A stretch of 4,217 nucleotides of DNA, taken from the IMG/VR virus record IMGVR_UViG_2609459830_000018, positions 1-4,217 of that record. One strand, 5' to 3'. The DNA comes from a virus (taxonomy: Duplodnaviria; Heunggongvirae; Uroviricota; Caudoviricetes). Below, one piece after another: positions 1,404-4,217 of the stretch (position 1 is the first letter of the stretch; every line of letters begins with the position of its first letter). The translations under genes and the position numbers were made by a program. Below the pieces are notes generated by a model. It saw only the letters and a program-made list of their open reading frames with translations. It did no database searches and was not told the DNA's origin.

Positions 1404-1900
1404 ATATCCTCCGGATAATAAAAAGCCAGCTTAGTGCACTGAGTGCGGATATATTCCTGCGCCCCTTCCAGCTGCTTCTGCATTGTCATCAACCGTTCTC
1501 TGAGGATGAAATAATCCCGTTCAGCGGTGTCTGCCAGTCGGGGGCCGGTTGCATTATCCACGCCGGAGGTGGTGGGGGCTTCACGCACGGAGCCTGGACA
1601 GGTGGCGTTGATCCGCAGGCGCTTACGACCAGCGGCAACGTCAGCGCGAAGAGTTTCATTTTCAGCTCTCGCATCGGCTAATTCCCTCGAGTATTTTGCA
1701 TCGAGCGCAGCAACATCGCGCTGGCGCACCTGCATATCAGTAATGGTTGCGTTCGCCAGCTTCAGTTCACTGGCTTTGTTATCGCGCTGCGCTTTGTAGG
1801 TAATCGCGTTATCACGGTAATGGTCTGTTGCCATCCACAGCGCACCACAGGCCACCAGCAGAATAACGATAAACGCGGAAAGCATTCGGTTTATGTTCAC
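1400..1900 (-). CDS. Rz: i-spanin (Rz), inner-membrane spanin subunit
   Basis: Translation ...[45 protein letters not shown]...VAAGRKRL...[34 protein letters not shown]... is near-collinear with lambda Rz as I remember it. N-terminal TM segment present. GTG start at 1900 overlaps the upstream ORF's TGA (GTGA); ATG 1885 is an alternative. Confidence 0.9.
1489..1674 (-). CDS. Rz1: o-spanin (Rz1), outer-membrane lipoprotein, embedded in the +1 frame of Rz
   Basis: Translation [61 protein letters not shown] has a lipobox (VSAC) and the proline-rich [26 protein letters not shown] core characteristic of lambda Rz1. It lies entirely inside Rz in another frame, the classic embedded architecture. Confidence 0.9.
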
Positions 1901-2028
1901 CCCAGCAGCCCCGACGAAGACAACATCATCCAGGCCATGGAAAGAAAAAGAGCAACCAGCATTAGTGAAAATGAAATGCCGACAATTACACAGAGGATCT
2001 TCGCCAGCGTTATGAGTTTGTCTGACAT
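1897..2028 (-). CDS. Small single-pass membrane protein (43 aa), function unknown
   Basis: ATG 2028..2026 is preceded by a strong SD (GGAGGA, 6-nt spacer). The stop TGA overlaps the Rz GTG start. Product [43 protein letters not shown] is dominated by one hydrophobic helix. Confidence 0.55.
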
Positions 2029-2042
2029 GCTTAATCCTCCCT

Positions 2043-2225
2043 TCACGATTTCAACGCAATGACCAGTTTTGCCAGCCCATACAGCATCGGGGACACAGCA
2101 ACACCGACCGCCACCCACTTAATGGCAAAAGCCAGTGCTCTGCTGATGTCATCAGTTACAGGCGCTTTCAGTTCAAGGCCGTTTTTCATGGTCAACCTCA
2201 ACAGAATTCGTTTATACTTCGCCAT
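2043..2225 (-). CDS. Small membrane protein (60 aa) with basic N-terminal region and C-terminal hydrophobic helix, function unknown
   Basis: ATG 2225..2223 is preceded by AGGGAG. Product [60 protein letters not shown]. Stop is 14 nt upstream of the next gene's start. Confidence 0.5.
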
Positions 2226-2258
2226 GTTCTCCCTTGCCTTACTCAAGGTCAGAAACAC

Positions 2259-2296
2259 AAAACCCCGCTTGGTGCCAACAAACGGGGTTTTTACTT
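2259..2296. terminator. Bidirectional rho-independent terminator between the endolysin gene and the small membrane protein genes
   Basis: AAAACCCCG (2259-2267) pairs with CGGGGTTTT (2283-2291), with an inner TTGG/CCAA pairing. It is followed by a T-run on the plus strand (TTTTTACTTTTATT) and on the minus strand (TTTTGTGTTTCT). Confidence 0.6.
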
Positions 2297-2381
2297 TTAT
2301 TCACTTACGTTTCGCCAGTTCGCAGGATTTCATGTTATCCGCCCGCGTGGCCATGCCTTATTTTTCAGCAAAATATTCTGC

Positions 2382-2915
2382 TTATCTGTCGATACCCCAG
2401 CACGCCAGCGCGCTCTCCTGGTCACGACGGGATACCTGACCGTAGCAGTTGTTTGAACGAATACGGCAGTCTCTGCCACCGTCCTTAATCCACCAGCGAA
2501 TCGCCTCACATGCTCCCCTGCGATCACCAGCATTAATTCGTCTGTAAAACGTCGACGGGAAACACTTACCGGGACCAATGTTGTACGGACAGAATGACGC
2601 GATCCCCGCTTTCTGGGGTTCGGTCAATGGCACTTTGATGTTTTTCTCCACCCATGCCAGCGCCTTATCACGTTCGATGGCGTTAACCTGGTCGCATTTC
2701 TCCTTCGACAACTTCATGCCCGGGACGACAGGTTTACCATCCACCAGAATGGCACCGCGACAGATGGTCCAGATACCCGCGCCATCACGGTATGCCGTGG
2801 TGTGGTTACCTTCCTTTTCATCCAGAAACTGGTCGAGAATGTCAGGCGCAGGCGCACCAGCGGCAATCAGCGCCAGAACGGCAGCCGACAGGCCGTATTT
2901 GATTTTGGTGTTCAT
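2382..2915 (-). CDS. R: Phage lysozyme (T4-lysozyme-like muramidase) with N-terminal SAR (signal-anchor-release) type domain
   Basis: N-terminus MNTKIKYGLSAAVLALIAAGAPAPD is a Gly/Ala-rich weakly hydrophobic segment. Catalytic-triad context E..(8)..D..(5)..T is present in EGNHTTAYRDGAGIWTICRG. Overall collinearity with P1 Lyz / phage 21 R type endolysins as remembered. Paired with a pinholin upstream. Confidence 0.88.
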   Translation of the reverse strand: MNTKIKYGLSAAVLALIAAGAPAPDILDQFLDEKEGNHTTAYRDGAGIWTICRGAILVDGKPVVPGMKLSKEKCDQVNAIERDKALAWVEKNIKVPLTEPQKAGIASFCPYNIGPGKCFPSTFYRRINAGDRRGACEAIRWWIKDGGRDCRIRSNNCYGQVSRRDQESALACWGIDR

Positions 2916-2951
2916 GGATATATTAAATATTCAGCCGCTGTCCCTGGCCCA

Positions 2952-3509
2952 CTAAATACGCACTTTAAGATAAGTCAGCCCCGGATGAAGCCAGTAAGCC
3001 GGCACTTTTTTAAAGGGGGGAGTATTAAAATCACGAAGAAGAGCCTCCCGCACAATTGCATCCTTATCAGCACCACTGGCCAGCGCTTCAATCTCAGCGG
3101 CTACCTGAAGATATCCCATGCAACGGCCAACGCGCTTCATCAGCCCCTGCTTTTTATTGTTCTTCAGGTAATCAATGGCAAATTCAATGAGCTCCTCACT
3201 GTGCTGGTGCAATGGAGGTGTTACTTTCCCATTTTCTGAGATGGTTATTTTCCCGGCATCACCGGATACAACAAAGGATGGCCGGTTACACTCCCATTCC
3301 AGGTTACTGAAATTATCATTATGAATACTGAAACACTCTGAGAGATTTCTGCTCATCACTTTCCGACAATAATCGTCAAACGCAGCAAACTGCTCATCGC
3401 GGCGTTTTTTTTCATCTTCAGAAGGCATCAGCGTCGACAGTTTTTTATTCAGTTCAGCAATTTCATTTTCCAGACGACTGAAGCGCTGATTCATTTCTTC
3501 ATGGTTCAT
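2952..3509 (-). CDS. Hypothetical soluble protein (about 185 aa) inserted between holin and endolysin genes
   Basis: ATG 3509..3507 has GGGGAG 8 nt upstream. The ORF begins 4 nt after the holin stop and ends 36 nt before the endolysin start. N-terminal about 45 residues are charged and heptad-like (coiled-coil-like). No TM segment or signal peptide by eye. No family recognised. Confidence 0.6.
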   Translation of the reverse strand: MNHEEMNQRFSRLENEIAELNKKLSTLMPSEDEKKRRDEQFAAFDDYCRKVMSRNLSECFSIHNDNFSNLEWECNRPSFVVSGDAGKITISENGKVTPPLHQHSEELIEFAIDYLKNNKKQGLMKRVGRCMGYLQVAAEIEALASGADKDAIVREALLRDFNTPPFKKVPAYWLHPGLTYLKVRI

Positions 3510-3512
3510 CAC

Positions 3513-3719
3513 CTAATCTCCCCGGGCAGCCTTGCGACGGTCCTCTCTGATTTTGAAATACAGGTTAGTCAGATACGTCAGCAGGCCAAACAGCAGACTC
3601 CCCAGCACACCTATCGCCACCCACTGGGACGGAGAGACTTTGTCCAGCAGCTGCAGTAACCAGTATCCCGTCCCCACCGCTGACGTGGTGTATGACACAC
3701 CCGTTGTGATTTTTTCCAT
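3513..3719 (-). CDS. S: Class II holin (pinholin), phage-21 S-like
   Basis: Product [68 protein letters not shown] (68 aa, two hydrophobic segments, charged C-tail) is near-identical in pattern to the S21/EssD pinholin as I remember it. Sits directly upstream of the lysozyme and spanins. Confidence 0.85.
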
Positions 3720-3764
3720 CTGATGTATGTCTCCGTCACCGCCGACAGAAAATGAAAGTAAAGG

Positions 3765-3799
3765 AAAACAAAAAGCCGCCAGTGTCGCCCACTGACGGC
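3765..3799 (-). terminator. tR'-like rho-independent terminator in the late leader upstream of the holin
   Basis: On the minus strand GCCGTCAGTG-ggcga-CACTGGCGGC (10-bp stem with one G-U pair) is followed by TTTTTGTTTTCC, about 45 nt upstream of the holin ATG. The position matches the lambdoid pR'-tR'-S arrangement. Confidence 0.55.
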
Positions 3800-3863
3800 C
3801 AACGCCGGGAGCCGTGATTATGGCATTCAGGCTCTGCTAAAAATGCCAGATAACATTCCGGCT

Positions 3864-3872
3864 CCCCCCCCC
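3864..3872. repeat. Homopolymeric C9 (G9 on the coding strand of the late operon) tract in the late leader
   Basis: Nine consecutive C residues read directly from the sequence, between the candidate late promoter and the tR'-like terminator. Confidence 0.9.
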
Positions 3873-3880
3873 TGATTCAG

Positions 3881-3907
3881 GTTATAAATGACACAATATC
3901 TTGACAA
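3881..3907 (-). promoter_or_regulatory. Candidate late promoter (pR'-like): -35 TTGTCA (3907..3902), -10 TATAAC (3886..3881), 15-nt spacer
   Basis: Best sigma70-like hexamer pair on the minus strand between the upstream ORF and the tR'-like terminator. The spacer is short, so the assignment is weak. Confidence 0.25.
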
Positions 3908-3977
3908 CACCCATCACTGTCTGTCAGAAAATGTACTGCCAGATATAAGTATCATGTGAAACCCAACTATCCTTCTT

Positions 3978-4020
3978 AGCCAGTACTTCTCCGACGAAAG
4001 TCAGTACTGGCTGTTTTTTT
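3978..4020 (+). terminator. Plus-strand rho-independent terminator facing into the 3' end of the upstream minus-strand ORF
   Basis: AGCCAGTACT (3978-3987) pairs with AGTACTGGCT (4003-4012), a perfect 10-bp stem with 15-nt loop, followed by G+T7 (4013-4020). The minus-strand side lacks a T-run. Confidence 0.5.
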
Positions 4021-4021
4021 A

Positions 4022-4217
4022 TTATGCTGCCGGTGCATTTATCTCCAGCACCAGACTTTCTATCTCAACGCCATACGCTGCATTTTTTGTAACATCCGTC
4101 AGCGTCAGCGCATTCAGCCCCAGTGTCAGACTGTCTTTTATAACCTGGAATGCCGGGCCAGCCACTCCATTCAGTTTCGGAGTAACCGTGGCACTGCCGG
4201 CGGTGAACACCAGCTCC
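4022..4217 (-). CDS. 3' end of an unidentified protein-coding gene (continues beyond the right edge of the window)
   Basis: Minus-strand frame is open to the window edge, ending ...ELVFTAGSATVTPKLNGVAGPAFQVIKDSLTLGLNALTLTDVTKNAAYGVEIESLVLEINAPAA with stop TAA at 4024..4022. Composition is protein-like and rich in small/beta-favouring residues. It does not look like a Cys-rich Q antiterminator tail. Confidence 0.4.
   Translation of the reverse strand, partial: ELVFTAGSATVTPKLNGVAGPAFQVIKDSLTLGLNALTLTDVTKNAAYGVEIESLVLEINAPAA

Follow-up and report, generated by a model that had tools for sequence, protein, structure and literature searches.

The C/G homopolymer at positions 3864-3872 of the DNA analysed here (4217 nt, hereafter the window) differs in length among closely related prophages, and we consider it probable that it is a hotspot of replication slippage in non-coding DNA, the length of which is close to neutral. 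The run, C9 on the plus strand and G9 on the minus strand, which is the strand of the late genes, lies inside a spacer of 302 bp between a nanS-p-like sialate O-acetylesterase gene and the holin gene S. This spacer would be functionally dense, with the gene for the small RNA PasA and a terminator before S as its established or well-supported elements, and the run would be a slippage-prone site in a stretch of it that is locally unconstrained. Gain or loss of G residues would leave the predicted RNA fold, the reading frames and the known promoter spacers unchanged; since extra Gs are predicted to stay unpaired and neither a spacer nor a frame is altered, lengths from G4 to G10 would be tolerated and the length of the run would drift. 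The suggestion that run length is nearly neutral leans on this predicted structure.

The run can be read directly, within ...ccggctCCCCCCCCCtgattcag... on the plus strand, so that the nine-nucleotide homopolymer described in an earlier note on this DNA is real. It is the longest homopolymer in the window, followed by a run of eight T residues at 3405-3412. Under a first-order Markov model of the window, 0.015 C-runs of at least nine residues are expected by chance, or approximately 0.022 if C- and G-runs are taken together, and with so low an expectation the run is unusual and modestly non-random, yet not extreme. No ORF of at least 30 aa in the window covers it. The run also lies outside the spacer between the -35 and -10 elements of both candidate promoters in its vicinity, that of PasA on the plus strand and a weak match on the minus strand. 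It lies outside the small RNA PasA, occupying -72 to -64 relative to the 5' end of PasA (a distance of 64 nt), and 64 nt ahead of the intrinsic terminator at 3800..3774 on the minus strand.

The gene content of the minus strand identifies the window as the lysis end of a lambdoid prophage resembling H-19B, phage 434 and the Stx1 phages. The upstream gene of the spacer (4022..4217, minus strand), of which the window holds the 3' end with the last 62 or so codons before it runs off, is a nanS-p/yjhS-like gene of the SASA family of sialate O-acetylesterases, as annotated in matching DNA from H-19B-like Stx1a phages, phage 434, YYZ-2008 and E. coli genomes. It is followed on the same strand by S (3513..3719), encoding a 68-aa holin of phage-21 class II (pinholin type; Pfam PF04971 Phage_holin_2_1, E = 8.9e-33), by an ORF of 186 aa without a Pfam match (2952-3512), by a phage lysozyme gene (2382..2915), by Rz with an embedded Rz1 and by a gene for a lipoprotein with a TonB C-terminal domain (TonB_C; 514-855), the last four genes being named from domain matches. 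Positions 1-280 hold the 3' end of an IS3-family transposase gene on the plus strand, which probably truncates the prophage there. The place of the 186-aa ORF, between the holin and endolysin genes, is taken in relatives by a shorter gene of the YdfR family, and the T8 run (A8 on the coding strand) falls within this ORF as a possible frameshift-prone site. The TonB_C lipoprotein gene sits where bor is found in many lambdoid phages.

The spacer and its flanks are 92-95% identical to matching DNA in H-19B, 22 Stx1a-converting phages, YYZ-2008, phage 434 and phage 2B8. Matches are also present in 699 out of 5426 complete E. coli genomes, where the median copy number is five; no complete E. coli genome contains more than about 80% of the window. 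The best relative in IMG/VR (L092) is 99.7% identical over 1897-4217 and stops approximately 110 nt past the window. When species-representative genomes were scanned for the spacer, E. albertii gave the sole match.

The earlier note had placed the run in the leader of the late operon, between a candidate late promoter and a tR'-like terminator, among pause and Q-engagement signals. The gene immediately upstream of the spacer is nanS-p, not Q. In H-19B the order is Q, stx1A, stx1B, approximately 2.8 kb of unannotated DNA and S; some 4.5 kb separate the end of Q from S, and at its S-proximal end the unannotated DNA corresponds to the 3' end of nanS-p in the window. E. coli 14EC017 has a spacer 100% identical to that of the window, and in this strain 5.9 kb, with seven other genes and nanS-p, lie between the end of Q and S. 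Directly after Q in this strain (L123, 3402-3494) there follow TTGATT-16 (with TG)-TAAAAT, then tgccctAACGATggg, which has an AACGAT motif straight after TAAAAT and is similar to the pause element of lambda pR', and then a hairpin with a T7 tail. By these sequence features the Q-adjacent site is the genuine late leader, with a canonical pR' and tR' 5.7 kb upstream of the run, and the spacer with the G-run reads as an intercistronic region deep within the late transcription unit. The window itself ends inside nanS-p, and this reading of the Q side leans on synteny in every annotated relative. With nanS-p immediately upstream and the genuine pR' and tR' beside Q, the model of a leader with Q engagement does not apply to the run.

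The resemblance that suggested a leader is a local one. As in the lambdoid late leader (pR', qut/pause element and tR', giving the 6S RNA of lambda and StxS in Stx phages), promoter-like hexamers, a short structured RNA of about 100 nt, an intrinsic terminator and the lysis genes follow one another. The part of the earlier description concerning a terminator-like hairpin was borne out, the terminator at 3800..3774 being placed as expected of a late leader (100-200 nt downstream of the promoter), whereas the 'candidate late promoter' amounted to a weak consensus match, with no site returned by a promoter scan of 3500-4217. Unlike a late leader, the spacer is not beside Q and has no proven pause element; the putative transcribed start, G9-AGCCGGAATGTTATC, contains -10-like hexamers at chance level only, e.g. 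AATGTT (3/6), and a Q-binding element is not of a kind that can be recognized from sequence. No late leader of another phage, e.g. phage 21 or 82, was found to be homologous to the spacer, a distant-mode search of the phage collection returning 28 records of the H-19B, 434, Stx1a and 2B8 types only. An analogy with IpeX of DLP12 was discarded because K-12 nmpC is on the opposite strand, which puts ipeX on the Q side, and K-12 DLP12 was likewise set aside as a relative of the spacer, the similarity being confined to the holin and Rz. Given this evidence, it is extremely improbable that the run lies in a pR'-tR' leader and alters sigma-dependent pausing or the loading of Q.

The second claim of the earlier note, that the tract is prone to changes of length, was supported. 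In complete E. coli genomes the same allele, GnAGCC, occurs with G7 in 16 records, G8 in 321, G9 in 9 and G10 in 1, counts that are approximate since they derive from exact matches to 67-70-nt queries, with one place, the best at 99% identity or more, taken in each record. O157:H7 normally has G8 (EDL933, TW14359 and EC4115), which makes the G9 of the window a rare +1 variant. Strains assembled with G7 include SS17 and SS52, and those with G9 include 2571, F6321 and 14EC017. In several O157:H7 genomes G9 stands at chromosome coordinates close to those at which other O157:H7 genomes have G8, at what may be the same locus, and strain 472 has G10 where records with neighbouring accession numbers have G8. 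A pattern scan yielded 122 copies, from 119 IMG/VR loci and three phage records, in which the immediate flanks were fixed by the pattern; between these invariant flanks there were 20 different alleles, the commonest being GGGGAGGCC (61 copies) and GGGGTTGGTC (16 copies), and the lineage with the AGCC suffix was represented by G4, G6, G7, G8 and G9. Tract length also varied between copies with identical flanks, so that it is not invariant among related prophages, a check that the earlier note had proposed: on the 280-nt background of the window, G7 was found in L092 and G9 in both 14EC017 and the window, and another identical 280-nt background occurred with both G8 and G9. Twenty metagenome contigs and E. 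albertii showed the same spectrum of alleles, including the interrupted GGGAGGGAGCC.

The run is part of a hypervariable patch of 17 nt (3859..3875), in which substitutions as well as indels lie between invariant flanks. In an alignment of 82 unique copies, 35% of the columns of the patch (3875..3859) were variable, compared with 2-8% in the rest of the block 3935..3720, 15% in S and 40% in PasA. The 215-nt block from PasA to the start codon of S (3720-3935) is thus far more conserved than either S or PasA. When copies were re-sampled with an anchor placed beside S, the flanks of the patch were intact in 139 of 143, so that their invariance is not merely a product of the search pattern. The alleles of the patch are shuffled among sequence variants of PasA and, as there are several prophage copies per genome, recombination between prophages probably adds to this shuffling, besides new mutation. 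A mosaic recombination junction was considered as the cause of the variability and rejected, because the only locus with different upstream DNA (L151) proved to have an insertion inside the G-run.

The spacer element upstream of which the run lies is the gene of an Hfq-dependent small RNA, PasA, validated in enteropathogenic E. coli (EPEC) E2348/69 (Pearl Mizrahi et al., 2021; PMC8550237). Table S6 of that report places PasA on the minus strand of NC_011601.1 from 743499 to 743415 (85 nt, the major form), with a minor form of 236 nt from 743499 to 743264, between E2348C_0688 and E2348C_0689 in the orientation '> < >', and gives EcOnc51 and EcOnc52 as the homologs in enterohaemorrhagic E. coli (EHEC). 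Expression and Hfq dependence are documented only for E2348/69 (northern blot and RIL-seq) and, by Hfq-CRAC, for Sakai. Alignment of the E2348/69 locus with the window (alignment A2) placed an 85-nt PasA homolog at 3936-4020 on the plus strand, antisense to the late genes, with a Rho-independent terminator and a U7 tail. The locus of the window shares with the published one (PMC8550237; Tree et al., 2014, PMC4104026; Zhu, Shabalina and Storz, 2026, bioRxiv 10.64898/2026.05.13.724894) the spacer between sialate esterase and class II holin genes, the antisense orientation, the aligned 5' end and the terminator architecture with its poly-U tail, and on this sequence evidence it belongs to the PasA/EcOnc51-52 family. 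Pairing in the terminator stem is kept in the window by a compensatory change from C-G to U-A, and in two pairs of the 9-bp consensus stem both partners have changed while the pairing persists (alignments A2 and A3). No mention of the G-run or the variable patch was found in the sections of the three reports that were covered.

Compared with E2348/69, there is hardly any difference in the block that extends to the start codon of S, whereas the window copy of PasA has an altered seed and lacks a module of approximately 150 bp. The proposed seed is GCCAGUACUU in the window and GCCAGCACCU in E2348/69, with two substitutions of which one is compensated in the stem. The module, which carries a second hairpin, lies between the nanS-p stop codon and PasA (its junction is at about 4021 in the window) and is present in E2348/69, 434 and H-19B (L125 2766-2915, L001 and L002) and absent from the window and 2B8; as it supplies the terminator of the 236-nt form, long PasA cannot be made here. 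A promoter for PasA is predicted from the sequence at 3901..3930 on the plus strand; it would consist of TTGACA, a perfect match, at 3901-3906 and TG-t-CAGAAA at 3922-3930, with a +1 near 3936, in agreement with the published 5' end, and this segment is nearly invariant (7% variable columns). A search of the whole window against Rfam at E <= 1 gave no match to PasA, the two sub-threshold hits, ncr982 over the PasA terminator and rimP, being chance ones. Esr41 was rejected as the identity of the plus-strand hairpin RNA because it is located in SpLE1.

The other spacer element is the intrinsic terminator just upstream of the holin ribosome-binding site (3764..3800, minus strand), which consists of an 11-bp stem at 3800..3774 with 7 G-C pairs followed by TTTTTGTTTT, is annotated as a terminator in the phage 434 record OL657226.1 and is conserved in all copies. 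By analogy with the moron architecture of lambdoid phages, it would most plausibly serve to stop Q-independent transcription, from moron promoters or by read-through from nanS-p, ahead of the lysis genes, and polymerase modified by Q at pR' would read through it. Ahead of this terminator the late-strand RNA is predicted to form a stem-loop (3807..3866), in which GGGAGCCG (3866..3859) pairs with the invariant CGGCUCCC (3814..3807) and the outer stem encloses an inner hairpin, GGCAUU (3847..3842) with AAUGCC (3827..3822), the terminator hairpin coming next. Only the last three Gs of the run take part in the predicted stem, together with the following AGCCG, and the other Gs form an unpaired 5' overhang. 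The same architecture was obtained in the minimum-energy folds for the window, E2348/69, H-19B and 2B8 (RNAs of 111-114 nt; z -3.2 to -4.3), and the predicted energy was alike, at -31.3 kcal/mol, for G6, G7, G8 and G9. Pairing in the outer stem is kept by 17 of the 20 patch alleles; over the alleles the predicted stem energy ranges from -20.5 to -31.3 kcal/mol, a spread of approximately 10 kcal/mol, and the G4TTGG(T/C)C alleles are without the stem. This spread in predicted stability fits either weak constraint or functional tuning. As the 3' arm CGGCUCCC never varies, the stem is not open to a test by covariation, and its existence is suggested by the modelling.

Slippage with little consequence has to be weighed against readings in which the length of the run matters, and against the view that the differences are artefactual. 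Our preferred reading is tempered by several points, namely that the block around the patch is much more conserved than the neighbouring genes, so that the DNA here is hardly indifferent and something could be tuned by a variable element within it; that transcription from a weak promoter-like match would begin exactly at the run; and that some of the one-base differences may be errors of assembly. The match in question is a sigma-70-like one on the minus strand (3879..3907), TTGTCA at 3907..3902 (5/6 to consensus, and probably the -35-like hexamer of the earlier note), then 17 bp and TAACCT at 3884..3879 (3/6), with TATAAC at 3886..3881 as an alternative -10 at 15 bp. TTGTCA overlaps back to back with the TTGACA of PasA on the plus strand. 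Hexamers and spacing would give a +1 at 3873-3871, the start of the G-run, so that the run would fill +1 to +9 of an unannotated late-strand promoter, divergent from that of PasA, and could be subject to reiterative transcription; this much of the earlier note's idea is allowed by the geometry, and in its favour the -35 region is nearly invariant and the predicted RNA has two stem-loops and then the terminator (z = -3.4). Run length would then determine how much productive transcript is made, over a leader of approximately 108 nt to the terminator, or how much basal read-through reaches the lysis genes. The -10 element matches at only three of six positions, however, and the AT-rich stretch supposed to hold it may just as well serve the PasA promoter as its UP-element region. 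The consensus scan gave no promoter, a result that is not decisive, as PasA is expressed and yet its promoter is missed by the same scan. The entries of Tree et al. (2014; PMC4104026) include no late-strand Hfq-bound RNA beside EcOnc51/52. According to the published RIL-seq tables for EPEC, a sense RNA from the spacer is nearly always the first partner of its chimeras, as targets are, has no U-tract longer than 4 and maps upstream of the putative start. We therefore regard a divergent promoter with reiterative transcription at the run as distinctly unlikely, and the more specific proposal, that lengths from G4 to G10 set the ~108-nt sense leader and basal read-through into the holin-endolysin cassette, as improbable. 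Such a slippage-controlled divergent promoter, if it existed, would give each prophage copy a level of spontaneous lysis, or of interference with PasA, that is inherited yet open to mutation.

Miscalling of a true G8 could likewise underlie the G9 of the window and the minority of G7, G9 and G10 elsewhere, while the run itself exists. Homopolymer miscalls in long-read assemblies give rare lengths around a dominant true one, and a dominant mode with rare one-step neighbours fits slippage and fits such miscalls as well. G8 is overwhelmingly modal, its neighbours are rare and roughly symmetric, and the G10 of strain 472 stands against G8 in neighbouring accession numbers. On the other hand, G4, G6 and G7 with the AGCC suffix and the interrupted GGGAGGGAGCC occur in independent assemblies of isolates and metagenomes, several O157:H7 genomes have G9 at similar coordinates, and homopolymer miscalls cannot account for the substitution variants that occur on identical flanks. 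The wider series of lengths, the substitution variants and the metagenome data together indicate that the site is genuinely variable, and it is unlikely that artefact explains the length differences, although the caution of the earlier note about a site sensitive to sequencing or assembly stands for one-base differences and is not mutually exclusive with slippage. Another possibility is an effect at the level of DNA on PasA, in which the length of the run at -72 to -64 would shift the helical phase or the distance of upstream sequences or bound factors. The position of the run relative to the published PasA 5' end would permit this, and in EPEC PasA is strongly dependent on conditions, its base mean being 3879 under activating and 230 under non-activating conditions in the tables of PMC8550237, so that some upstream regulation is likely. 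No known or recognizable regulator site was seen upstream, however, and the patch alleles are shuffled among PasA variants, and we consider such an effect very improbable.

The slippage reading, in which the run is a spacer homopolymer of the kind seen in many genomes, gives it little functional weight, and it is probably of little functional consequence. The run resembles the simple-sequence contingency loci of Neisseria, Haemophilus and Campylobacter in that it is a slippable G/C homopolymer, 8-10 nt long, with length polymorphism between close relatives, with the reservation that one-base differences may be assembly errors. In contrast to those loci, it lies neither in an ORF nor between -35 and -10 elements and so fails their defining positional feature; the predicted RNA structure is independent of its length, and no on/off phenotype is known. 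Reiterative transcription at initiation controls pyrBI, codBA and upp in E. coli and, at a G-run, pyrG in B. subtilis. The homopolymer would resemble such leaders if the weak minus-strand promoter were real. Here, however, the start is a predicted one, no nucleotide-sensing logic is evident and no such RNA appears in the available Hfq-CRAC and RIL-seq tables.

In practical terms, the run can serve as a marker by whose length the several near-identical prophage copies of EHEC and EPEC genomes differ, and it is a place at which assemblies are likely to disagree. The corrected map is the more useful outcome, as the spacer holds the PasA gene and a terminator that would shield the lysis genes, rather than a late promoter, and in models of late transcription and lysis control in Stx phages pR' is to be sought beside Q. 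Should PasA or basal holin expression turn out to depend on the length of the run, the run would act as a simple, mutable control of how the prophage behaves.

Some further observations concern the spacer and the lysis cassette. The sense RNA of the spacer in E2348/69 (NC_011601 743494-743512, plus strand; approximately 3923-3941, minus strand, in the window) is found in chimeras with the small RNA PasB, with 19 fragments under activating and 798 under non-activating conditions in the published RIL-seq tables, which hints that the nanS-p 3' UTR/holin 5' UTR is itself the target of a small RNA. A small RNA partner on the sense strand was considered and rejected, since there is no EcOnc entry for it beside EcOnc51/52 in the published list and the sense RNA in RIL-seq is target-like towards PasB. 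The insertion in L151 (approximately 455-1902; IMGVR_UViG_2711768068_000018) is a mobile element within the patch, ...TCAGGGGGGG | element | GGGGCCGGAATG..., with a transposase-like ORF of 398 aa that we assign to the IS110 family by eye only, and it indicates that the patch can serve as an insertion target. Finally, there is at 2259-2301, between the endolysin gene and small downstream ORFs, a hairpin rich in G+C, AAAACCCCG...CGGGGTTTTT, which has U-rich runs on either strand; it is the site of the sub-threshold match to the rimP leader in Rfam and looks like a bidirectional terminator within the lysis cassette.
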